IMG/VR virus record: IMGVR_UViG_3300044977_000034
Location: 14,059-78,058 of that record
Reading direction: 5' to 3' (one strand)
Origin: a virus
Length of the DNA stretch: 64,000 nt
Position numbers and translations under genes: made by a program. The notes beneath the pieces are model-generated. The model was not told where the DNA came from. It was given only the letters and a program-made list of their open reading frames with translations, and searched no databases. Positions 8,420-21,413 of this stretch are shown piece after piece. How positions within the stretch are numbered: the stretch's first letter is position 1; every line of letters starts with the position of its first letter.

Positions 8420-8895
8420 CCGCCAAGCTTGACGAATTTCACCAGATCCAGCGGGCACGCGAAATTGCTCTCGACGTTGCCGGTATTACTGACCGGGCAC
8501 GTTCTGATGTACCACTCGTCCGAGGTGCGCTCCTCCACGATCGCGGCTGCGCCCAGGTCGTCGCTCACGCTCACCCAGGCGAAGACGTCACCGATCGCGC
8601 GCCGAACCGAATCCACGCTGGCGACGAAGACCTCGCGGTAGGGCCAATCCCTCCGGCCGGTGAAGGTCACCCCGAGCGTCTTGACCTCGATTCGGAGCCT
8701 CGGGCCGCCCTCTTCCCAGGCGAACACGTCGCCGTTGTCGCGGTAGTTCCTGTGCTCAGCCGCCGTCGGCGCCTCTCGGAGCGGCGGAATCGTGACCCAG
8801 TAGCCTTGCGAACTGAGCCAATAGGCGAAGGCCCACTGCCCACGCTTCGACCCGCGCAATCGGTCGAGGAATTTCGCATGTTGGCTGGTGCCCAA
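8416..8895 (-). CDS. Putative PD-(D/E)XK nuclease-like protein
   Basis: DNGD...IEVK motif; the annotated TTG start lies inside the tRNA 3' end. Confidence 0.55.
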   Translation of the reverse strand: MGTSQHAKFLDRLRGSKRGQWAFAYWLSSQGYWVTIPPLREAPTAAEHRNYRDNGDVFAWEEGGPRLRIEVKTLGVTFTGRRDWPYREVFVASVDSVRRAIGDVFAWVSVSDDLGAAAIVEERTSDEWYIRTCPVSNTGNVESNFACPLDLVKFVKLGG

Positions 8896-8961
8896 GGAAG
8901 GGATCGAACCTCCGACGCCCGCGCCTTCAACGCGGCGCTCTACCAGCTGAGCTACCTGGGC
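8886..8961 (-). tRNA. tRNA-Phe (GAA)
   Basis: 76-nt cloverleaf: GCCCAGG/CTTGGGC acceptor, GCTC/GAGC D-stem, CCGCG-TTGAAGG-CGCGG anticodon arm, GGAGG-TTCGATC-CCTTC T-arm, encoded CCA. Confidence 0.95.
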
Positions 8962-9623: not shown

Positions 9624-11282
9624 TCAGACCGGATACAGCGGCATCGGCGGCATCGGGCTCTGCATCAGCTCCGCGTATTCCTCCATCTGAACCTCGGTGC
9701 TCTTCTTCAGCATCCCCCGATCGCGGAAAAACTTCAGCCCTTGGGTGACAGCGTCAACAATGTCGTCGTGCTTGCCCTTCGGGAAGCTCGCCATCTGCGA
9801 CATCGCCAGCTCCGCCCAGTCCCGAGGCCAAATCGCCCCATGGCTCTGAGTCTGCGCCGGAACCCAAACCACGCCCTTCCGCACCGAGCCGTCGGCCTGC
9901 TCCTCGCCCCACAGGTGACTCAGCGCATGCGCCCGCGAGGTCTTGTCCATGTTGCCCGGATCGATCCGCTGAACCGCGAACTCCTCGTCCCGCGTCAGCC
10001 GCGTCACCTCCTGGGCGACCGAGATCCCGCTCCCCTTCAGCTCGATGAGCAAGCGATCGACCTTGAGCTTGCGGCAGCTCTTGATCACCTCCTCGACCAG
10101 ATCGTTCAGCGGCAGCCGCTTCTGCCAGCACGCCATCAAAATCACTTGCTGGACGCCCTTGTGGTTCGTCCAAACCCCGAGCACGACGAACGCCGAATAG
10201 TCGTTCTCCTGCTTCTCGCCGTAAGCCGAATCCAGCGAGCCCACGATCATGTCCAGATCCGGAAATTGGCTCTCGTTGCGCCCATAGGTCACTGCGACGC
10301 TGCGCGACCATAGCTCCCAACCATTGTACGGAAAAATCCCGCCGCCACGCGGCGCAGGCCTTTGCTGGTACTGACCATTCCAGGCCCATTTGTCCATGTC
10401 GCGCTTGAGGTTCTCGACCTCCGGCCGAGCCCACCGCGCCGGAAACAACAGCTCCCCCTCCGAGCGCCGCCAGTCGCTGAAGCCGATCGACGTCTCGCAG
10501 TGCCGACCGCTCTCGTATTCCATCGGCAAAACCAGCTGAACGTAATCCGGCATGTGCTCCTGAATGACCCCCGAAATATCCGCCTCGTGCAGCCGCTGCA
10601 TCACCACAACGATCGCTGATTTCGCCTGATCGTTGAGCCGATTCACCGCGCTTTCTCTAAATCTACGTGTTGCCTTTTCTCGGTCGTTCTGGCTCTCTGC
10701 TTTCTCTACACTGTGAGGATCATCAAGTATAAGACGATCTCCTCTTCGGCTCGTAAGACTAGAGAAAGCAACACCATCCCTTGTCCCAGTAAGAGTGTTC
10801 TCAAAACTAAGTTCGCCGCCTCTGGTTAACTCAACGTGCGGCCAATGTCTTTGATACCAGTCGCTCGTTACTAGCAACCGCATCTTCCGAACGTCCCGAA
10901 CGCACGCGCTCTCCGCAAATGAACTCGAAATATACCGATAGCTCGTCAGACCCTTCGGTCCCCATTCCCACGCGGGCCACATCACCGACACGAGCAAACT
11001 CTTCGCGCTCCCTGGCGGGACATTGATCAGCAGCCGTGTGATCAGCCCAGCGGTCACCGATTCGAGGTGCTCGCAGATAGCCTCCACCAACATTCCACGT
11101 ACAAACGGCATCCTCGGTTCGAGGATCGGCCACGCCTCCTCTACAAACCCAACCAAGCTATCTCGGCACTTCTCCCTCACCGACGACATCGACTCCGTCG
11201 CCGCCATCGACGAGATCCCCAGCTCCCGCCGCATCAACTCGCTGACCACCGCCTCGTGACTGGGTAGATTCGACCTGGGCAT
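9624..11282 (-). CDS. terL: Terminase large subunit
   Basis: INVPPGSAKS Walker A, RGDRLILDDPH Walker B, MQRLHE, YQQRP, nuclease DSA...NDYSA and FPKGKHDDIVDA. Confidence 0.95.
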   Translation of the reverse strand: MPRSNLPSHEAVVSELMRRELGISSMAATESMSSVREKCRDSLVGFVEEAWPILEPRMPFVRGMLVEAICEHLESVTAGLITRLLINVPPGSAKSLLVSVMWPAWEWGPKGLTSYRYISSSFAESACVRDVRKMRLLVTSDWYQRHWPHVELTRGGELSFENTLTGTRDGVAFSSLTSRRGDRLILDDPHSVEKAESQNDREKATRRFRESAVNRLNDQAKSAIVVVMQRLHEADISGVIQEHMPDYVQLVLPMEYESGRHCETSIGFSDWRRSEGELLFPARWARPEVENLKRDMDKWAWNGQYQQRPAPRGGGIFPYNGWELWSRSVAVTYGRNESQFPDLDMIVGSLDSAYGEKQENDYSAFVVLGVWTNHKGVQQVILMACWQKRLPLNDLVEEVIKSCRKLKVDRLLIELKGSGISVAQEVTRLTRDEEFAVQRIDPGNMDKTSRAHALSHLWGEEQADGSVRKGVVWVPAQTQSHGAIWPRDWAELAMSQMASFPKGKHDDIVDAVTQGLKFFRDRGMLKKSTEVQMEEYAELMQSPMPPMPLYPV

Positions 11283-12257: not shown

Positions 12258-12573
12258 ACATCTCCATTACGCTAATACTACACGGGGCAACCCATATTTT
12301 TGCCTCGTGGTTATAGGCTTAAAACTTTCCGACCAGCACTCCCCCCCCACCCTCCTGGCACCATTACGGCACCCTATCGGCACCGTTGCGGCACTGAATA
12401 CGCCCCTGGCAGTGGTGCAGAACGCCATGCGTTCTACGCCTGTCTCACAATCCGAAGATAGCGAGCGCGCAACGCCTGGAGATGCCCGCAATTGCTGGGC
12501 TTTCCGGGCCATGCGGTTGACCGGAGGCGGCGCTGCGCGGAAACCAGTTGACCGAGCGCGAAACCGGGCCGCA

Positions 12574-12987
12574 GGGACGCCCGACGCGCGCCGCGCGACA
12601 ATCAATCTTCGCATCCGGAGGAGGGAACCGGCGGGGAAGTGATCGAATCGTCGATCGCTGGCCGCTGCCCTCATGAACGTGAATGCAGGCTTTAGCGGCG
12701 GGACGAAGAAAGGGTTTGCCCAACGGGACGCGCAGCGCCCTTTCTTTGTCCCGGCGTGGGGACATTAGCGGGACAAAGGGCATCATTATTGACGTTTTCT
12801 CGCGGCGGAGCGCTAATGTTTGAACGCCTGGGGCCTGGGCGCTGCGGGACCTCGCTTAAACCGGGCGCTAGTCGCGCCCGCGCTCCGTCCCTTGGCCGCT
12901 ATGGGCTGGTGGAATGTGGCGGGGGGAGGGGGGATAGGGGGGAACCGTCACAATACTTGTCAAGAGGGACATGGCGGATAGCGGGAC
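12574..12987. repeat. GGGAC repeat cluster 1 (10 copies)
   Basis: Copies at 12574, 12700, 12725, 12748r, 12759, 12770, 12846, 12887r, 12966, 12983. Confidence 0.7.
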
Positions 12988-13092
12988 GGAATTGAAAATT
13001 TAATGTTTGAGGTGGGGCAAGCCACTGATTTGACTACCTCGCATTTTATGCAAGATTGGCCTTCAGACGCTCACAGAAGGCCGCTGGCGAGC

Positions 13093-13467
13093 ATGGCGAA
13101 CAATCCGGCGCTGATTCCTGCCCAATCAATCGACGAGGTTTTGAGGCCTCGTGGATGGCTCCAATTGCGGCTGCAAAGCCACAAGTCTGGGGTATGGTTT
13201 GGCTGGTCTCTGCGCCAGCGGCGCAACTGGTGGCGCGTGAGCGGCTGGGCCGACAAGTCCGAGTCGATCGTCATCGGCCATGTTGACTTTGACGCGCGCG
13301 TGTTCCGGCCGGTTCCGGGTCGAGGCGGCTTGCCTCAAACGGTGATGTTTGGATGGCTCTTGCGCCGTCTCGCGTCTGGCGAGCTACCGCTGGCTGACGC
13401 TGACCTGTACGCGCTGACGCTGAACGTCGAGACACTCCAAACCCGTCAACGGCGCCTTCGCCGATGA
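13093..13467 (+). CDS. Hypothetical protein
   Basis: MANNPALIP... ORF, ATGA-coupled to the next gene; start uncertain. Confidence 0.4.
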   Translation: MANNPALIPAQSIDEVLRPRGWLQLRLQSHKSGVWFGWSLRQRRNWWRVSGWADKSESIVIGHVDFDARVFRPVPGRGGLPQTVMFGWLLRRLASGELPLADADLYALTLNVETLQTRQRRLRR

Positions 13468-13646
13468 TCGATCGCGACGAGGCGTGCGACCGCCTGGAGG
13501 ATGAGAACCTCACCGACTGGGAGGCGGACTTTGTCGCCTCGATTCGCGACTGGCACGGTTCGCTGACTGACGCGCAGGCTGAGACGCTGGCGCGTTTGGT
13601 CAAGCGGCGGCTGGGCGAGGACTGTGACCCGACAGACTTTCAATGA
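13464..13646 (+). CDS. Hypothetical protein (LTDWEADFVASI...LTDAQ)
   Basis: 60-aa ORF with a helical motif seen in phage proteins. Confidence 0.65.
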   Translation: MIDRDEACDRLEDENLTDWEADFVASIRDWHGSLTDAQAETLARLVKRRLGEDCDPTDFQ

Positions 13647-13660
13647 GGAGGAACCGAGCC

Positions 13661-13819
13661 ATGGCGAGAGACAAGTATGAGCAACACGCCCGGATCGTGA
13701 TCGATCAATTGTTCCCGCAATGGCCGGACGAGGCGCGCGCGTCTCTGGTCTGGCTACTGGTTGATTTTCTCCTGAGTCTGGACGGCATCTGCGCCAAGAT
13801 GCCTGAAGGGCCGCAATGA
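13661..13819 (+). CDS. Hypothetical protein, 52 aa (MARDKYEQH...)
   Basis: GAGGAGG RBS; shorter than the ORFs in the track. Confidence 0.55.
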   Translation: MARDKYEQHARIVIDQLFPQWPDEARASLVWLLVDFLLSLDGICAKMPEGPQ

Positions 13820-14013
13820 CTTAGGCGGCAAATTTCTGAAAAGCACCTCGAGATCGGTAAACCGGGAAAACTCCTAGATCGCTGTTAACATCGCCAGTTA
13901 TCAGAACATCATCTTTCGGCTTTGCCGACTTTTTCTGCAAACCTGACTTTCCCGTAGCTTAGGGTAAATTCGGCGTATTTGGCCGCTGATGGGCCTTGCC
14001 GGAATCTCCGGGC

Positions 14014-14028
14014 TTGCACGGCGTGCAA
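14014..14028. promoter_or_regulatory. Palindromic operator TTGCA-N5-TGCAA
   Basis: TTGCACGGCGTGCAA, one of six exact intergenic copies. Confidence 0.65.
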
Positions 14029-14100
14029 AAATGGACCCCGCTCACGGGCGATCTATGGCCGTTTAATCGCCTATCGTCTTTTGTGGCTTGAGAGGCGTTT

Positions 14101-14376
14101 GTCCCTGGCTTGTCCCGTCTCAGTCCCGCCTGTTTAAGCGTGTCCGAGCCGAATCGACGCGCGGGACACGCGCGGGACATTGTGCAAGCATTCCGCCCGG
14201 AATTGCTCAGGTCGAGAGGGACAAGCGCGGGACGCAACCAGCCCTATGTATATAAAGCGTGCAAAAAGCGTCGTGATGGCGACGAAAACCTCTTGACCGC
14301 GCGTCCCGCAACGATCATATAGAGGGACATGCGCGCCGCCTACGGCGCCCCAAAAGAGGAGTCGAGATCATGTCCC
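14101..14376. repeat. GGGAC repeat cluster 2 (10 copies, several 11 bp apart)
   Basis: Copies at 14101r, 14112r, 14123r, 14163, 14174, 14218, 14229, 14303r, 14324, 14372r. Confidence 0.7.
14293..14365 (+). promoter_or_regulatory. Early promoter, CCUA-loop hairpin and GGAGTCGA box
   Basis: TTGACC-17-CATATA; GCGCCG-CCTA-CGGCGC hairpin; GGAGTCGA at 14358. Confidence 0.7.
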
Positions 14377-14606
14377 GTTTTGAAATGAAGGTGAACGATA
14401 CCGCCGATTGGGCCGAGCACGATTGGCTCGTTTTCGAGGACGGCGTGATGGTTCATGGGTTCGCTGGGTCCAATGCGGCCGAGCGTTTCATCGCCCGTCG
14501 TCAGGCTGCGATCGCGATCGACAAAGAGATTGCTCGCGCTCGCCGGACGTCTCGCGTGTCGAACGCCGAGGCGCGCCGCATCCACGCTCTTTTGCGGAGG
14601 CGCTGA
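14370..14606 (+). CDS. Early hypothetical protein
   Basis: 78 aa, GGAGTCGA RBS. Confidence 0.75.
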   Translation: MSRFEMKVNDTADWAEHDWLVFEDGVMVHGFAGSNAAERFIARRQAAIAIDKEIARARRTSRVSNAEARRIHALLRRR

Positions 14607-14608
14607 CA

Positions 14609-14671
14609 AGGCGAAACGCGATCGGCTATTGGCCGATCGCGTCCTGGCGTGAGGCGCCAGCTGACGAGCCT
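14609..14671 (+). ncRNA. Type II hammerhead ribozyme 1 (predicted cleavage after C14643)
   Basis: AGGC-GAAA-stem III hairpin-GUC-CTGGCG/TGAGG/CGCCAG-CTGACGA-GCCT; complete catalytic core. Confidence 0.92.
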
Positions 14672-14701
14672 ACCGTCTGCCATCCAACCGGAGTCGAATC
14701 C

Positions 14702-15118
14702 ATGTCACGCGAATCTGATCTGCGCCCGTTCTCGTTTGATGATCTGCCTTGCCGCGACGGCAAGCGCGTCGAGCCCGAAAAATGGGGACCGAAATATTCC
14801 CGGCCGGTGAAACCCGGCAAGCCGGTCGATCGCTGCCCCACCAATTGCGCGAGCGGGCAGAAGTATGACTTCGACGCGGGGAAACACCGGGCGAAGATCC
14901 GGGCGGAGTTCGTCGCCCAGGCTAACGCCGATCGGCGGTCCTGGGCGGAGGGCAAGCCGCGCGCGAAGGCCTGGGGCCTCACCGAGACGATTGTCGACGT
15001 CTACAAGGCGGCCATGCGCGACAAGCGCAAGCGTGAGTTCGCCGCGCAGTCCGCAAAAAATGCCGAGTACCTACAATTTTTTCTCGACGACGACGCCCCG
15101 ATCGCGAGGGCGGCATGA
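14702..15118 (+). CDS. Early hypothetical protein (MSRESDLRPF...)
   Basis: Start set by the GGAGTCGAA RBS at 14690. Confidence 0.7.
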   Translation: MSRESDLRPFSFDDLPCRDGKRVEPEKWGPKYSRPVKPGKPVDRCPTNCASGQKYDFDAGKHRAKIRAEFVAQANADRRSWAEGKPRAKAWGLTETIVDVYKAAMRDKRKREFAAQSAKNAEYLQFFLDDDAPIARAA

Positions 15119-15300
15119 TGACCAAGTGGATTGTGACCTATCCCGGCATCACTCAAGACCTAACCCGCGCCTTCGACAACGAGTCGGAGGCCAAGCAATT
15201 CGCGCGCGTCCGCCGGGATCGCGAACTGCATATGTGGCGCCATGTCCGCCTTGAACGGACCGAGGACAATTGCGTCACCATGATCCCGGTCAAGTTCTAA
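15115..15300 (+). CDS. Early hypothetical protein
   Basis: ATGA coupling. Confidence 0.7.
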   Translation: MMTKWIVTYPGITQDLTRAFDNESEAKQFARVRRDRELHMWRHVRLERTEDNCVTMIPVKF

Positions 15301-15365
15301 GGCGAAACGAGGAGGCCCGTCAGCGGGCTTCCTTGTCGCGCGGTGAGGCCGCGCCTGATGAGCCT
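15300..15365 (+). ncRNA. Type II hammerhead ribozyme 2 (predicted cleavage after C15337)
   Basis: AGGC-GAAA-13-bp stem III-GUC-GCGCGG/TGAGG/CCGCGC-CTGATGA-GCCT. Confidence 0.93.
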
Positions 15366-15383
15366 AACCAACAGGAGTCGAAT

Positions 15384-15668
15384 ATGACAGACCGCAAGAT
15401 TGATTACGTGACCTTTGACGATGACCCGGACGGGCTCGATTGGAAGGCGCCGATCTACGACAAGGACGGGACGCCTCGTCCGCAAATTGTCTTGATGGCG
15501 CTCGCCTACCGCGACGGGAGCGATGACCTCGTCGATTCGCTAAGCACCATCGATTTCTATCAGGAGCGCGGCGACTGGATTCGGGGGACGTTCCGGCGCG
15601 TGCGGGACATCCCGGCGCGTTGCGCCCATCTGCGTGAGGTCGCGGAACAGCTGGGGTTGAAGCAATGA
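15384..15668 (+). CDS. Early hypothetical protein (MTDRKIDY...)
   Basis: GGAGTCGAA RBS at 15374. Confidence 0.7.
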   Translation: MTDRKIDYVTFDDDPDGLDWKAPIYDKDGTPRPQIVLMALAYRDGSDDLVDSLSTIDFYQERGDWIRGTFRRVRDIPARCAHLREVAEQLGLKQ

Positions 15669-15955
15669 GACTGCCCACCATCCACCTGAACGGGACCGAC
15701 GCACAGTCGCTCTTTGACGGCTACAAGGCCGCCCATGAGGCGATCAAAGCCGCTCAAGAGGCGCTCGCCCAGTGCGCGCCCAATGGCCGCGACTACTACG
15801 TCCAAAAGACCGAGTCCGGCGACTGGACCGACGTACCCACCAACGAGGCGATATATGAGCACCGCGCCCGGATGGCGGCGCTGGAAACGATCGAGCGTGA
15901 CCTTGAGGCGCTCGCCCTGCACGTCATGGACGCTGACCCCAAGGTGCGGACGTGA
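15665..15955 (+). CDS. Early hypothetical protein (PTIHLNGT...PNGRDYY)
   Basis: ATGA coupling; motif seen in phage proteins. Confidence 0.75.
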   Translation: MRLPTIHLNGTDAQSLFDGYKAAHEAIKAAQEALAQCAPNGRDYYVQKTESGDWTDVPTNEAIYEHRARMAALETIERDLEALALHVMDADPKVRT

Positions 15956-16002
15956 TCGGCCTCGCCTGCCTGTTCGCGCTGTTCATGTTGGCGAGCGGCA
16001 GA

Positions 16003-16098
16003 ATATAAAAACGGTTGCCATGTTGACAAGTTTTGCAGTCAACGCTATCTGAGAGGGGCGCGGCGCCTACCGCGCCCCTTAACTTTTTTGGAGTCGAA
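16003..16098 (+). promoter_or_regulatory. Early promoter, CGCCUA-loop hairpin and GGAGTCGAA box
   Basis: TTGACA(16023)-17-TATCTG. Upstream ATAAAAACrGTyGCCATGTTG is shared with the 18.7-kb promoter. 10-bp hairpin at 16054-79. Confidence 0.75.
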
Positions 16099-16102
16099 TC
16101 CC

Positions 16103-17011
16103 ATGCGTGACCTACACCGAGAAATTACCGACAAAATCCTCGCCCAGCTCAAGACGGGCGTGGCGCCCTGGCGCAAGCCCTGGTCTGAGCACGTCCAGGC
16201 GCACGGTTCCGTGATGCCGCGCAACGCCGTCACCGGCCGCGCCTATTCGGGCGCCAACGTCCTGTTGTTGTGGGGCGTAGCGCAGACTGAGGGCTACGGC
16301 CCGAGGTGGCTGACGTTCAAACAGGCCAAGGCGGCTGGCGGGACTGTGCGCGCGGGCGAGCACGGCGTGGCCGTGATCTTCGTCAAGCGCATGCTGGTGC
16401 GCGATCGAAAGGACCCGGACGCGCACAAGACGATCGGTTTTCTCAAGGCCTATACCGTGTTCAACACGGCCCAGTGCGACGGCTTGCCGGACTCGGTCCT
16501 GGGCATTGGCGAGGCTCCCCTGCACCGCCCGGTGAACCCGGACGGGCGCGATGCTGACCTCGATGCCTTCGTCGCGGCGACCGAAATTCGCTTTGTCGAG
16601 CAAGGCATCAAAGCCCAATATTCGCCCCTGTTCGACCGCATCGAGATGCCGCCTTTCGCCCAGTTCAAGGGCGCCCATCCGTACTACGCGACCATGTTCC
16701 ATGAGATGGGGCACGCCACCGGCCACAAGAGCCGCCTGGACCGCAACCTCAACAACAAATTCGGCGACCGCTCCTATGCGGCCGAGGAGCTAATCGCCGA
16801 GCTAACGTCGGCCTTTGTGTGCGCGGAGTGGGGCATCGACATGGGCGAGGCTCCGGCCGCCTACATCGAGACCTGGGTCTCGCTCCTGGCCGAGAAGGAA
16901 ACGGCGATCGTGACCGCCGCTGCGGCGGCCTCGCGCGCGGTGGAGTGGATGCGGGGCGCGGCGAGCGCCGAGGAGGCGGACGAGGACGAACCCCTGCCCA
17001 TGGCCGCCTAA
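16103..17011 (+). CDS. ardC: Antirestriction protein ArdC (ssDNA-binding plus zincin domains)
   Basis: PWRKPW, PRNAVTGRAYSGAN, WLTFKQA, YTVFN..QC, HEMGHATGH..RLDR, YAAEELIAE. Confidence 0.93.
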   Translation: MRDLHREITDKILAQLKTGVAPWRKPWSEHVQAHGSVMPRNAVTGRAYSGANVLLLWGVAQTEGYGPRWLTFKQAKAAGGTVRAGEHGVAVIFVKRMLVRDRKDPDAHKTIGFLKAYTVFNTAQCDGLPDSVLGIGEAPLHRPVNPDGRDADLDAFVAATEIRFVEQGIKAQYSPLFDRIEMPPFAQFKGAHPYYATMFHEMGHATGHKSRLDRNLNNKFGDRSYAAEELIAELTSAFVCAEWGIDMGEAPAAYIETWVSLLAEKETAIVTAAAAASRAVEWMRGAASAEEADEDEPLPMAA

Positions 17012-17035
17012 TTCAATCCTGAGAGGAGTCGAGCA

Positions 17036-17266
17036 ATGTCTAAGCCACAGTACGTCGTAGTGATCACCTTCGCCAACGGTTCGATCGATCGCCTATCGTT
17101 CGATCGCTGGTCCCAGTGCCGGGACGTCTGCCAACACGGCATCAGCTACAGCGGCGGTCGCGTGCGCCGCGTCGAGGTGGATTGCGCCGCGCTTGGCGGC
17201 GGCCTGCGGGCTATGTGGGACGTCTCGTGGACGGCCGAGAGTCAGCACGCTGGTCTGTACAACTAA
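17036..17266 (+). CDS. Early hypothetical protein
   Basis: GGAGTCGA RBS at 17025. Confidence 0.7.
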   Translation: MSKPQYVVVITFANGSIDRLSFDRWSQCRDVCQHGISYSGGRVRRVEVDCAALGGGLRAMWDVSWTAESQHAGLYN

Positions 17267-17328
17267 GGGCGAAACGGCGGCCGAGCGATCGGCCGTTGTC
17301 GCGGCGTAAGGCGCCGCCTGATGAGCCT
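17267..17328 (+). ncRNA. Type II hammerhead ribozyme 3 (predicted cleavage after C17300)
   Basis: GGGC-GAAA-stem III with GCGA tetraloop-GUC-GCGGCG/TAAGG/CGCCGC-CTGATGA-GCCT. Confidence 0.93.
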
Positions 17329-17343
17329 AAACAGGAGTCGAAA

Positions 17344-17847
17344 ATGATTAGTGACGAAGACAAGCTTGCGGCGGCCGAGGCGCTCGACCGGGCCTATGCA
17401 AAGGCGGAGGCCTTTGACGCGGCGCAAGAGGAAGACCGCAAATTGGATGCCTACGGGCATCTGACGTGGACGCTTGGGGATGACGATTGGATGGCGTGTT
17501 TCGACGCCGTCCGGATAGGCTCCGAGATCGCCTACCACGTCGTGGTCGACTGTGAGTCGGGCGGTTTTATCTCCACAATCGAGAAGGGCGTCGTGCCAGT
17601 TAGCGAGGCCGCGCGCCTCATTAATCTGCCGAGCCAGTACGTTGATATGGCGATCGAGAACCATCTCGACGCGCGCCGTAAACGCGAACCCGTGGGCCGG
17701 TTCGCCTATCGCGGCTGCGAGAAGCGCTGGGCGCGACATATCAAGCAGCTCATCAAGCAAAAGCCGGAGCCCCAGGACGATGACGTCGAGGACGTTGACC
17801 AAGCGGCCGAGCTACGCAAGGCGGCGCTGAATCGGGGGCAACCATGA
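17344..17847 (+). CDS. Early hypothetical protein (MISDEDKL...)
   Basis: GGAGTCGAA RBS at 17334. Confidence 0.7.
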   Translation: MISDEDKLAAAEALDRAYAKAEAFDAAQEEDRKLDAYGHLTWTLGDDDWMACFDAVRIGSEIAYHVVVDCESGGFISTIEKGVVPVSEAARLINLPSQYVDMAIENHLDARRKREPVGRFAYRGCEKRWARHIKQLIKQKPEPQDDDVEDVDQAAELRKAALNRGQP

Positions 17848-18077
17848 GCCAAGTTATATTCACGCGCTGGTGCCTGGACCCCAAGGGGCGCACGCCGGTC
17901 TCGGTTGACCCGGCGCGCGTCGATTGCACCGAGCACTACGGCGATGCTTTCCAGGCGCCCTACGCTGACGGTGAAGCCTTCCCGGCGGCCACGCGGGTCA
18001 TCATGAAGGGCAAGCAAGAATATGTCGTCCAAGGGGCTCTGGCTGACGTCGTGGCGCGCCTGAACGTCAACGACTGA
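17844..18077 (+). CDS. Early hypothetical protein
   Basis: ATGA coupling. Confidence 0.7.
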   Translation: MSQVIFTRWCLDPKGRTPVSVDPARVDCTEHYGDAFQAPYADGEAFPAATRVIMKGKQEYVVQGALADVVARLNVND

Positions 18078-18151
18078 GAACGCGAGCGGGACGGCGTCGA
18101 GCAATCGTCGCCGCCTCGCGGGCGCTCTTGCCCGGTTAAGGAGTCGAACCC

Positions 18152-18454
18152 ATGCAGAAAGTAGCCGAAAAAACGATCAAACCCACCGAGCTGGTGAGCG
18201 AGGGGAGCTGGGGCTCCCGGCGTCTCGGCAAGCACGCCTCGACCATGACGCTGTACGCGGACGGTCCCCATTACACGATCGAGTGGGACATCCCCGCGCT
18301 CGATGAGGTCGAGCACATAGGCCTGACGTTCGAGCACAAAACGCTGACCGATTACGACGGCATCATGTCGCTGCCACGCGAGGCGGTCGCGTTCCTGCGC
18401 GAGCAGGGCTTCATCGTGCCTCGCGAGTTCGAGGACGACGAGGCGCTGTCGTGA
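18152..18454 (+). CDS. Early hypothetical protein
   Basis: GGAGTCGAA RBS at 18140. Confidence 0.75.
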   Translation: MQKVAEKTIKPTELVSEGSWGSRRLGKHASTMTLYADGPHYTIEWDIPALDEVEHIGLTFEHKTLTDYDGIMSLPREAVAFLREQGFIVPREFEDDEALS

Positions 18455-18672
18455 ACCCGGAGCTGGACAAGCGCCGGGATGCCCTCCTGCGGGCGATCTC
18501 CGCGCCCGATCTATATCGGATGCGCGCGGCGGTCGATGGGTGCTGGACGCGCGAGCTGGGCGACTTCAACGTGGTGAACGTGCGCTATTTCATCGCCGCC
18601 AACTGGCACCGCTACGCCGACGAGATTCGGCGGTGGTGCGAGTTCACGCTCACGGGCGAATCGACGCTCTAA
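18451..18672 (+). CDS. Early hypothetical protein
   Basis: GTGA coupling. Confidence 0.6.
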   Translation: MNPELDKRRDALLRAISAPDLYRMRAAVDGCWTRELGDFNVVNVRYFIAANWHRYADEIRRWCEFTLTGESTL

Positions 18673-18765
18673 AAATAAAAACAGTCGCCATGTTGCCTCT
18701 TTTCGCATAGCATGCCATATCAGGACCGGGCGGCGCCTACCGCCCGGTTTTCTTTTGGAGTCGAA
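18673..18765 (+). promoter_or_regulatory. Early promoter, CGCCUA-loop hairpin and GGAGTCGAA box
   Basis: TTGCCT(18693)-17-CATATC; ACCGGGCGG-CGCCTA-CCGCCCGGT; box at 18757. Confidence 0.7.
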
Positions 18766-18768
18766 ATT

Positions 18769-18972
18769 ATGTCCCGTATTGGAATCCTGCGACAAGCGCG
18801 CCGCCTCGCGCGCATGCCCAACCCCGAGGCGCGGCTCGCCTCTCTCGATCGCATCGCAGCCATTCTTGAGAAGGCCTGCGAGCGCAATGCGCGCCAACGT
18901 GCGCTGGCTAAATTCCAGCCGCGCGTCATCCCCTCAAAGCGCATCTACACGCGCAAAGGGAGGCCGCAATGA
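18769..18972 (+). CDS. Small basic hypothetical protein
   Basis: GGAGTCGAA RBS. Confidence 0.65.
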   Translation: MSRIGILRQARRLARMPNPEARLASLDRIAAILEKACERNARQRALAKFQPRVIPSKRIYTRKGRPQ

Positions 18973-19313
18973 TCACGATCACGCAAGAGGGCGGCCGGTA
19001 CGTCGCCCGATTCGCTTTCGACTACGCGACCAAGGATTTGGTGAAGGCGGCCGGATTCAGGTTCGACGGCGTCCGCAAAATCTGGTGGACCGACAAGGCC
19101 GAGATCGCCGCGCAAGTTTCGGCCGATCCTGGCGAGCTGGCGGCGCGTCTCAACGCCGAGCGGCAGGCGCAACATCAGGCTCGCGAGGCGTCAATTGTCG
19201 CATCGCACGCGACCGATGCCGCGATCGAGATTCCGGTGCCGCAGGGGCTCGAATATTTGCCCTACCAAAAGGCAGGCATCGCTTACGCGCTCCGAGTTTT
19301 CGGGGACCTCTGA
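18969..19313 (+). CDS. N-terminal part of a split SNF2/HARP-like helicase (HARP-like domain plus Q motif)
   Basis: F.Y..KDLVK..GFRFD...K.WW and C-terminal YLPYQKAGIAYA (SNF2 Q motif). Confidence 0.8.
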   Translation: MITITQEGGRYVARFAFDYATKDLVKAAGFRFDGVRKIWWTDKAEIAAQVSADPGELAARLNAERQAQHQAREASIVASHATDAAIEIPVPQGLEYLPYQKAGIAYALRVFGDL

Positions 19314-19696
19314 TGCCCGTCGCGATCGTCTGCGCGATTTGTTCGACGCAATTTTTTGTGGTGCCGAGCCGCGTCAAAAAGGGCGCGAAATATTGCAGCT
19401 ACGCTTGCCACCAGATTGGCGAGGGCCGCAAGGGCGGCACTGCCCGAGGCGAACAAGTCAAGCAGGCGAGCAAGGGCAAGACTTACACCAAGACCAAAGG
19501 GCGCCACACGCATCGTGTCGTCGCCGAGAAGGTTCTCGGGCGGCCACTGCGTCCAAAAGAAACCGTCCACCACGCGGACGAAAACATACTGAACAATGAC
19601 CCCGGCAACATCGAAGTCCTGCCGGACCAAGCAACCCATATGCAGAAGCATCGCAAAGCGCTGCTGGCTGCCAGGAAGGTGAAACATGGCTACTGA
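19313..19696 (+). CDS. HNH homing endonuclease with N-terminal Zn finger
   Basis: CAIC...YCSYAC; HRVVAEKVLGRPL...VHHADENILNNDPGNIEV; overlaps both neighbours. Confidence 0.88.
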   Translation: MPVAIVCAICSTQFFVVPSRVKKGAKYCSYACHQIGEGRKGGTARGEQVKQASKGKTYTKTKGRHTHRVVAEKVLGRPLRPKETVHHADENILNNDPGNIEVLPDQATHMQKHRKALLAARKVKHGY

Positions 19697-21341
19697 TGGC
19701 GTATTGATCGGCGACGAAATGGGATTAGGAAAAACAATACAGGCGCTTGGTATCGTCAATGCGGTTCCGAGCATTAAGTCGGTACTTGTTATATGCCCTG
19801 CCTCGCTAAAACTAAACTGGCTGCGCGAGGCCCAGAAGTGGCTTGTGCGCCCAGTGACAGTGGGCGTTGCTAATGGATCGTTTCCAACGACTGACGTCGT
19901 GATTGTCAATTACGACGTGCTGACCAAGTTCGACGCCCAGATCAAAGCGGTGAACTGGGACCTCGCGATTCTCGACGAATGTCATTTTGCCAAGAACGCC
20001 AAGGCGCAGCGGACTCAGGCGATATTCGGCAAGTGGGACGCTGAGACGAAGGCGTGGAAGGTCGCGCCGGTTCGCGCCGCGCGCCGCCTGTTTTTGACCG
20101 GCACGCCCATCCTGAACCGGCCAAAAGAACTGTGGACGATTGTCCACGCGCTGGACCGGCAAGGGCTGGGTGCCAATTGGAGGGCGTTCCACACTCGCTA
20201 TTGCGCTGGTCACCAGACCCGGCACGGTTGGGATATCGACGGCGCATCGAACCTCGCCGAGCTGAATAGCAAGCTTCGCGCGGCGTTCATGATTCGCCGC
20301 CTCAAGAGCGAGGTTCTCACCGAGCTACCGCCCAAGCGCCGACAGGTGATCGTGCTTGAGCCGTCGAAAAAGGCGCGCGCCCTGATCGAGCGGCAGAACG
20401 CCCTCGCCGATCGCGTCAGCAAGGCCAAGGAAGCCCTCCAGGCGTCGAAGGCCTCAGAGGACCCCAAGGCGTTCGAGGCGGCTGTAGCCGCCCTGGAGGA
20501 CGCCTCTGGGGCCGCTTTCGAGGAGATGAGCGCGCTCCGGCACGAGATCGCCCTGGCCAAGCTTCCCCAGGTCATCGAGCACGTTCGCGATGCCCTGGAC
20601 GGCAGCGAGGGCAAGATCATTGTTTTCGCCCACCACCGGGATGTGGTCGAAGCCCTGGCGAAAGAGTTTTCCGACGTCGGCGCCGTCAAGCTTATGGGCG
20701 GCGATAGCGCTGACGACAAACAGTCGGCGGTCGATCGCTTCCAGACTGATCCGAGCTGCCGCGTGTTTGTCGGTTCGATCAAGGCGGCAGGCGTAGGCAT
20801 TACTCTGACGGCGGCGACTCACGTTCTGTTCGCGGAGCAGGACTGGACTCCTGGCTGGAATCAGCAGGCCGAGGACAGGGCGCACCGCATCGGGCAGCGC
20901 GAGTCGGTGCTCATCCAATACGTGGTGCTCGACGGTTCGTTGGATGCGCACATTGCGCAAGTCAATGTCGATAAGGCGGCCATTGCCGACAAGGCGCTCG
21001 ACAAGCCGGGGGCCGCGCTCGTCGCGCTCGCCGAGTTGGTGACGCCACCGGCTCCCAAAGCCCCAGAGAGCCTCGTGGAGCCGCGTCCGGCCGCTCCGGC
21101 TCCCAGCCTAGCCCCGGAGGTCGTGGAGGCGGTCCACGCTGGTCTGAAGGTGATTGCGGGCCTATGCGACGGCGCCCAGGCGCTCGACGATCACGGGTTC
21201 AACAAGCTGGACAGCACGTTTGGCAAGAGCCTTGCGGCGGCGCCGTTCCTTTCGCCGCGTCAGGCCGATCACGGGCGGCGCCTCTGCATCAAGTATGGGC
21301 GGCAGCTCCCGGCCGATTTGCTGGCGACCATCAAAGGCTGA
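19686..21341 (+). CDS. SNF2-family helicase, C-terminal part
   Basis: DEMGLGKT, ILDECH, LTGTPILN, AAGVGITL, QAEDRAHRIGQ; Walker A starts at residue 10, with no Q motif. Confidence 0.93.
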   Translation: MATDGVLIGDEMGLGKTIQALGIVNAVPSIKSVLVICPASLKLNWLREAQKWLVRPVTVGVANGSFPTTDVVIVNYDVLTKFDAQIKAVNWDLAILDECHFAKNAKAQRTQAIFGKWDAETKAWKVAPVRAARRLFLTGTPILNRPKELWTIVHALDRQGLGANWRAFHTRYCAGHQTRHGWDIDGASNLAELNSKLRAAFMIRRLKSEVLTELPPKRRQVIVLEPSKKARALIERQNALADRVSKAKEALQASKASEDPKAFEAAVAALEDASGAAFEEMSALRHEIALAKLPQVIEHVRDALDGSEGKIIVFAHHRDVVEALAKEFSDVGAVKLMGGDSADDKQSAVDRFQTDPSCRVFVGSIKAAGVGITLTAATHVLFAEQDWTPGWNQQAEDRAHRIGQRESVLIQYVVLDGSLDAHIAQVNVDKAAIADKALDKPGAALVALAELVTPPAPKAPESLVEPRPAAPAPSLAPEVVEAVHAGLKVIAGLCDGAQALDDHGFNKLDSTFGKSLAAAPFLSPRQADHGRRLCIKYGRQLPADLLATIKG

Positions 21342-21413
21342 AGGCCAGCGCGCGCGCCTCGACGTTTCGGGGCGCGGTCGCGGGCAATCCGCCCGGTAGA
21401 GAGAGTCGAACCA

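Follow-up and report, generated by a model that had tools for sequence, protein, structure and literature searches.

Type II hammerhead ribozymes are common in bacteria, where they often lie near integrases and prophages (PMC3088659). Cleavage during in vitro transcription was shown for tandem sets from Clostridium scindens, Azorhizobium caulinodans, and Agrobacterium tumefaciens, and a triple set in a prophage of A. tumefaciens C58, situated around the anti-restriction gene ardA, is active in E. coli as well (PMC3088659). Spliced or circular products of tandem prophage hammerheads were sought in that work and not detected, and the hypothesis that long phage transcripts are processed into gene-length mRNAs was already stated there; a 2019 review restated a role in stability or translation as an open hypothesis (PMC6765202). 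Here, we describe three type II hammerhead motifs, HH1, HH2, and HH3, between the genes of a putative early block in an uncultured phage (IMG/VR record IMGVR_UViG_3300044977_000034; 78,058 nt, linear, estimated 100% complete). The window analyzed is the 64,000-nt stretch from 14,059 to 78,058 of that record, and positions are given in window coordinates throughout.

The placement of hammerheads between phage genes has been known since 2011 (PMC3088659); HH1-3 are a clean new example of this arrangement, not a discovery, and leave current understanding unchanged. They provide a complete-genome example of a phage hammerhead cluster, again linked with an anti-restriction early block: three same-strand copies flank genes or short blocks within a complete virus record, the pattern that marks such clusters. 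HH1-3 share with the prophage sets of Perreault 2011 the ribozyme class, the topology, the presence of two to three copies flanking single genes or short blocks, and the inferred role. The anti-restriction context and the G+C-rich genome are common to both as well, with ArdC here in place of ardA in Agrobacterium. HH1-3 differ in lacking a pseudoknot and in having a loop I of 5 nt, a stem II of 4 bp, and a stem III that is unusually long; their cleavage is a prediction. A validated sequence from Perreault 2011, partially reconstructed from an antisense oligonucleotide in Table S1, combines a loop of 7 nt with a pseudoknot of 4 bp. Twister and other self-cleaving ribozymes likewise occupy intergenic positions in phage-related operons and have been proposed to process polycistronic RNA into pieces that differ in stability or translation, although their folds are unlike that of HH1-3 (PMC6765202).

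Three complete type II hammerhead motifs between phage genes

HH1 (14609-14671), HH2 (15300-15365), and HH3 (17267-17328) all lie on the + strand, with spacings of 691 and 1967 nt between consecutive elements. They have a common layout: (A/G)GGC, GAAA, a stem III hairpin, GUC, a 6-bp stem I closed by a U(G/A)AGG loop, CUGA(C/U)GA, and GCCU. This three-element layout had been proposed in an earlier, sequence-only reading of the window, and our reading of the sequence bears it out to the exact coordinates. In each element, loops close stems I and III while stem II is open and bears the 5' and 3' ends, which is type II topology. In hammerhead numbering, the 3' strand of stem II ends at C11.1 and is followed by G12, A13, A14, and A15.1; U16.1 closes stem III, C17 is the cleavage site, and stem I spans 1.1 to 2.1; C3, U4, G5, A6, N7, G8, and A9 then lead into the 5' strand of stem II from G10.1. 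The invariant hammerhead core (clan CL00010; H17 not G) is complete in all three, in the right order and spacing, and the core-adjacent pairs G10.1-C11.1, C/G1.1-G/C2.1, and A15.1-U16.1 are present in each. With the full core and three helices at all three sites, the earlier assignment to the hammerhead consensus is confirmed, and the GUC cut positions predicted in that reading also check out. The stem II strands of the three elements are identical or compatible.

Each motif is fitted tightly between a stop codon and a ribosome-binding site (RBS). The sequence-only reading had placed the elements 0-2 nt after the upstream stop. This is correct for HH1, which lies 2 nt downstream of TGA 14604-06, and for HH3, which follows TAA 17264-66 with a gap of 0 nt, but HH2 overlaps TAA 15298-300 by 1 nt, its first base being the last A of that codon. 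On the other side, the GGAGUCGA boxes begin 18, 8, and 5 nt past HH1, HH2, and HH3, respectively, matching the 5-18 nt given previously. Similar placement is seen in a broader set of 116 viral type II hammerheads (alignment A2 plus HH1-3). An upstream open reading frame (ORF) of at least 40 codons has a stop that ends -4 to +2 nt from the first base of the ribozyme in 86 of these, and in 109 a downstream ORF starts within 90 nt (median 25 nt). The median spacing of consecutive hammerheads in viral contigs is 710 nt. This stereotyped order of stop, ribozyme, and RBS makes a simple experimental system in which to ask whether such hammerheads govern mRNA stability, insulate translation, or respond to upstream translation.

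Searches and models that recover the three elements

A loose type II descriptor, consisting of the core and stems of at least 4/4/2 bp, was applied to both strands of the whole 78,058-nt record. It returned exactly HH1-3, compared with a mean of 0.005 matches in 200 dinucleotide-preserving shuffles. No further copies were found by the descriptor in the whole record or by the models R1 and R2 with filters off. When folded in isolation, each of the three elements adopts the hammerhead three-way junction as its minimum-free-energy structure, with z scores of -3.2 to -4.5. Covariance model R2, built solely from 113 hammerheads of other viral contigs with HH1-3 excluded, scores HH1 at 69.0, HH3 at 67.2, and HH2 at 65.3 bits (E about 1e-18); nothing else in the window exceeds 16.8 bits. 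Judged by core, fold, and these scores, HH1-3 are genuine type II hammerhead motifs.

One match of model R1 (19.5 bits, 16028-16085, - strand) was rejected, as it is the terminator-like hairpin between HH2 and HH3 read backwards and lacks the hammerhead core. Twister, pistol, and hatchet models gave no match in the window.

Covariation and selection on structure

Five viral contigs (L014, L030, L045, L071, and L082) are syntenic with the block, sharing the 78-aa first gene, the 138- and 61-aa genes, ArdC, the 167-aa gene, and the SNF2 helicase. Their orthologous slots also bear hammerheads, with different stems. In an alignment of 11 sequences comprising HH1-3 and the hammerheads of these relatives, 98.2% of the positions that should pair do so, and compensatory changes occur at 15 of 21 pairs; controls in which the alignment was slid are 34-51% paired. 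Across 108 distinct viral sequences, the paired fraction is 96.5% of cells, with a covariation score of 0.675 that drops to 0.05-0.09 in slid controls. The values for both sets are to be read knowing that the descriptor and search pattern pre-selected hairpins and fixed most of stem II and that alignment A2 was fitted to the model. Stem II hardly varies across the aligned hammerheads, partly because the pattern fixed it, so the independent evidence from it is slight, whereas that from stems I and III is substantial. A strict core combined with compensatory pairing shows that the RNA fold, and not just a DNA junction, is under selection, so the selection on structure proposed in the sequence-only reading is upheld.

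A compact form without the pseudoknot

A pattern scan of IMG/VR identified at least 120 viral loci (L001-L120) with type II hammerheads that have the same stem II as HH1-3. Type II hammerheads are very common in viral contigs, and two architectures can be cleanly separated among them. Among the IMG/VR matches listed, 40 loci carry at least two hammerheads, and some have up to nine in about 14 kb.

In the 116-member set, the long-loop form has a stem-loop I of at least 21 nt, and in 69% of members (29% after shuffling) loop I can pair with the 3' tail over at least 4 bp to give a pseudoknot; this form matches Perreault 2011 and Rfam. The compact form has a stem-loop I of 17 nt (6 bp and a 5-nt loop), shows such a pseudoknot in 2% of members (7% after shuffling), and is not in the published consensus. 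HH1-3 belong to the compact form. Its 44 distinct members have the loop consensus U-R-A-N-R, in which the first base is U in 42; the loop-closing pair is G-C in 40, and stem II is 4 bp. Position -1 is occupied by A in 41 of the 44, and an A directly follows stem II in 29. The U(G/A)AGG loop described in the sequence-only reading is present to the letter in HH1-3, but AGG is not the conserved feature of this loop, which is U-R-A-N-R class-wide. For the same reason we rejected a candidate AGG:CCU pseudoknot involving loop I; in addition, the CCU is already a strand of stem II, and complementarity to the tail extends over 1-2 bp. A tertiary contact would probably be made between the loop I U and the conserved A's flanking stem II, including the A at -1, to judge from their conservation.

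At 11-13 bp, the stem III of HH1-3 ranks within the longest 8% in a set of 204 viral hammerheads, as might be expected of a hairpin that protects a 3' end. When HH1-3 were folded in ViennaRNA with 60-150 nt of flanking sequence, stem I retained a mean pair probability of at least 0.66, and stem III reached at least 0.95 in HH1 and HH2 and 0.43-0.65 in HH3.

Predicted transcript processing and its alternatives

We consider it probable that HH1-3 are compact, pseudoknot-free type II hammerheads, each of which would cut the transcript into messages of one or two genes, with hairpins at the ends and with insulated ribosome-binding sites. HH1-3 would be transcribed within the rightward early/anti-restriction gene block and, on folding, would self-cleave after C17, most likely at 14643/44, 15337/38, and 17300/01 and in a constitutive manner. 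The upstream mRNA piece would then end in the G+C-rich stem III hairpin of 11-13 bp with a 2',3'-cyclic phosphate, and the downstream piece would carry its 5'-OH immediately next to the stem I hairpin, 20-35 nt before the next GGAGUCGA RBS. These ends had been named in the sequence-only reading and, as predicted products, they follow from hammerhead chemistry. Long early transcripts would be resolved into messages of one or two genes, among them a predicted excised HH1-HH2 RNA of 694 nt (14644-15337). The hairpin-capped ends may set message stability, and translation may be insulated from upstream sequence. Our data establish the identity of the motifs, their statistical significance, their covariation, and their fixed order between stop and RBS; cleavage in the phage and the role in stability and insulation are inferred. 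In E. coli, the effect of 5' stem-loops and the dependence of RNase E on a 5'-monophosphate make protection of both ends plausible. Synthetic insulators of the RiboJ type provide a parallel: a hammerhead before the RBS removes upstream RNA and leaves a 5'-OH hairpin, which standardizes translation and raises mRNA level. RiboJ was engineered from a type III satellite-RNA hammerhead, whereas HH1-3 are natural and their predicted cut also leaves an upstream 3' hairpin.

Several observations weigh against this interpretation. The pseudoknot between loop I and the 3' tail that characterizes the majority form (at least 4 bp; Perreault 2011) is absent from HH1-3, where at most 1-2 bp can form, and the tertiary contact for fast cleavage at physiological Mg2+ can therefore only be inferred. 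In the ViennaRNA folds with flanks, the probability of stem II is about 0 in HH1 and HH2 and 0.1-0.4 in HH3; we take this as a caution and not a refutation, because the energy model ignores the non-canonical pairs of the core. The sequence-only reading assumed a single early polycistron, an assumption made doubtful by the terminator-like hairpin (16053-16080) and the promoter-like box that sit between HH2 and HH3; owing to this hairpin, HH2 and HH3 may be on different transcripts. Moreover, a 5'-OH end is not protective everywhere: in Bacillus, the glmS ribozyme product that carries one is broken down by RNase J1. Finally, the Infernal check against the Rfam Hammerhead_II family that the earlier reading had proposed falls short. 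At the gathering threshold, Rfam reports no hammerhead in the window, and in E-value mode RF02276 scores HH2 at 24.7 and HH3 at 23.9 bits, below its gathering score of 37 bits, and does not list HH1. The core, topology, and helix order of HH2 and HH3 nonetheless align over the full model (positions 1-66), but in the Rfam consensus loop I is longer and a conserved 3' tail (AGCC...) pairs in the pseudoknot. The scores are below threshold because HH1-3 belong to a compact subclass without the pseudoknot that is not represented in this consensus; the low score reflects the model, not the motif. Since the Hammerhead_II cut-off misses the compact subclass, annotation based on the database undercounts phage ribozymes.

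These sub-threshold scores are also the point in favor of regarding HH1-3 as chance look-alikes, that is, as ordinary intergenic hairpins serving as stability or terminator elements. We give this next to no credence, as three motifs were found where 0.005 were expected, an independent model matches them with E of about 1e-18, every invariant core base is in place in all three, and the stems covary; together, the shuffles, the covariation, and R2 effectively refute a chance origin. The position of the stop codons raises a different possibility, namely a translation-coupled switch in which the ribosome finishing the upstream gene decides whether stem II forms, such that cutting would be a readout of upstream translation, or conditional on it, and would not be constitutive. 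The 5' edge of the ribozyme (the A at -1 and the 5' strand of stem II) abuts or overlaps the stop, which is within -4 to +2 nt in the 86 of 116 hammerheads noted above; the A at -1 is nearly invariant in the compact members (41 of 44), and the flanks are predicted to out-compete stem II unless they are kept unfolded. However, simple genome compaction also predicts tight spacing, the stop-codon offset varies over this same range, and folding and cutting of hammerheads usually take place during transcription, on a scale of seconds to minutes; we regard such a switch as unlikely. By extension, compact pseudoknot-free hammerheads may be a distinct ribosome-sensing subclass, in which the upstream stop lies in the ribozyme edge and termination gates stem II and cleavage. 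We consider this extension distinctly unlikely; if true, it would also explain why the Rfam cut-off misses the compact form.

Differences among relatives bear on whether cleavage matters at all. Hammerheads could persist at module boundaries as portable, selfish cassettes (the core together with a GCCUA...GGAGUCGA box), with cutting of little consequence. Slot occupancy varies between relatives, orthologous slots hold unrelated stems, and near-identical stems occur in different slots: stem III of HH3 is close to that of L014a, which is in the HH1 slot, and HH3 and L045b have the same stem I but different stem III sequences. A strictly conserved core, base pairing kept by compensatory change, and stereotyped placement relative to the stop and RBS are at odds with dispensable cleavage, and we find it quite improbable. 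A further alternative is that the excised piece, which would read 5'-OH-stem I-CUGAUGA-GCCU ... AGGC-GAAA-stem III-GUC>p, re-forms a chimeric hammerhead from its own two ends and is religated into a circular mRNA, or that pieces are joined in a new order. Chimeric hammerheads are possible because HH1-3 share stem II strands, identical or compatible among the three, and the required geometry follows from type II topology. Against ligation, no spliced or circular products of tandem prophage hammerheads were detected when sought (PMC3088659), the phage encodes no RtcB or RNA ligase, and a 4-bp stem II is weak over 0.7-2 kb, making this outcome highly improbable.

Slot turnover and mosaic stems are seen at L014:1266-2963, L030:3258-3725, L045:8219-10487, L071:5524-5589, and L082:1392-1452. 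This pattern suggests recombination at or between ribozymes.

Gene block and genomic setting

The rightward block begins after a roughly 550-nt non-coding stretch and runs in the order 78-aa gene, HH1, two genes, HH2, two genes, TTGACA box and hairpin, ArdC, 76-aa gene, HH3, and 167-aa gene (Table 1). Homologues of the 78-aa gene in L071, L082, and L014 likewise have a hammerhead after them.

Table 1. Positions of the three hammerhead motifs, their predicted cut sites, and surrounding features of the window
Feature	Position	Strand	Details
HH1	14609..14671	+	stem II AGGC/GCCU; stem III about 11-12 bp; stem I CUGGCG-UGAGG-CGCCAG; core CUGACGA
HH1 predicted cut (GUC)	14643/14644	+	
HH2	15300..15365	+	stem III 13 bp; stem I GCGCGG-UGAGG-CCGCGC; core CUGAUGA
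HH2 predicted cut	15337/15338	+	
HH3	17267..17328	+	stem II GGGC/GCCU, terminal G-U; stem III 11 bp; stem I GCGGCG-UAAGG-CGCCGC; core CUGAUGA
HH3 predicted cut	17300/17301	+	
Large terminase	9624-11282	-	
Promoter-like TTGACC-17 nt-CATATA	14293..14321	+	read by eye; consensus scan made no call
78-aa gene, first of block	14370..14606	+	no family match; stop 2 nt before HH1
Two overlapping small genes, HH1-to-HH2 unit	14702-15118, 15115-15300	+	
Two small genes downstream of HH2	15384-15668, 15665-15955	+	
TTGACA box, then 11-bp G+C-rich hairpin (loop CGCCUA) and U-run AACUUUUUU	16023..16088	+	directly before ArdC RBS
ArdC-type anti-restriction protein	16103..17011	+	ArdcN PF08401 1.4e-35; zincin-like metallopeptidase PF18818 1e-40; phrog_7245 3e-80
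76-aa gene	17036..17266	+	TAA stop abuts HH3
167-aa gene downstream of HH3	17344..17847	+	L045 homologue also preceded by hammerhead
SNF2 helicase	from 19686		

The segment at 16023-16088 has the appearance of an intrinsic terminator, a promoter-proximal 5' hairpin, or both; the terminator-like hairpin within it (16053-16080) has a fold z of -3.84. In L045, the position after the homologue of gene 15665-15955 has a hammerhead in place of this hairpin. Long ORFs that run through the elements (14408-15118, 15270-15668, and 17116-17847) were rejected as genes, as alignments of homologues begin at or near the ATG after the GGAGUCGA box.

With regard to wider searches, blastn of 12500-20400 against named cultured phages matched helicase genes only (66-79% identity) and revealed no near relative. 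For window positions 14300-17500, no RNA runs were listed; one soil-metagenome DNA run shares a small part of the words. A strict compact pattern with a GCCUA tail gave only two matches in 185,579 species-representative bacterial genomes, in Microvirga lupini Lut6 (L122:2271-2337) and in a Saccharibacteria metagenome-assembled genome (L121:2675-2729), neither of which is syntenic with the phage.

Other intergenic signals recur in the window. Two stop-to-RBS spacers without the hammerhead core (18078-18151 and 21342-21413, + strand) each contain, in this order, a long hairpin, a short GGGC-N5-6-GCCC hairpin, GGU, and a (G)GAGUCGA box; they have no Rfam match, and their fold z values of -0.6 and -1.3 are not significant. 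The extended start box GGAGTCGA occurs 15 times in the window compared with 3.3 expected, with 13 of the 15 on the + strand, and its sites include 14358, 14690, 15374, 16090, 17025, 17334, 18140, and 18757. The same box follows hammerheads in the relatives L014, L030, and L045. Outside the block, the phage encodes a tRNA (8889-8961, - strand; 59.2 bits) immediately downstream of its large terminase.

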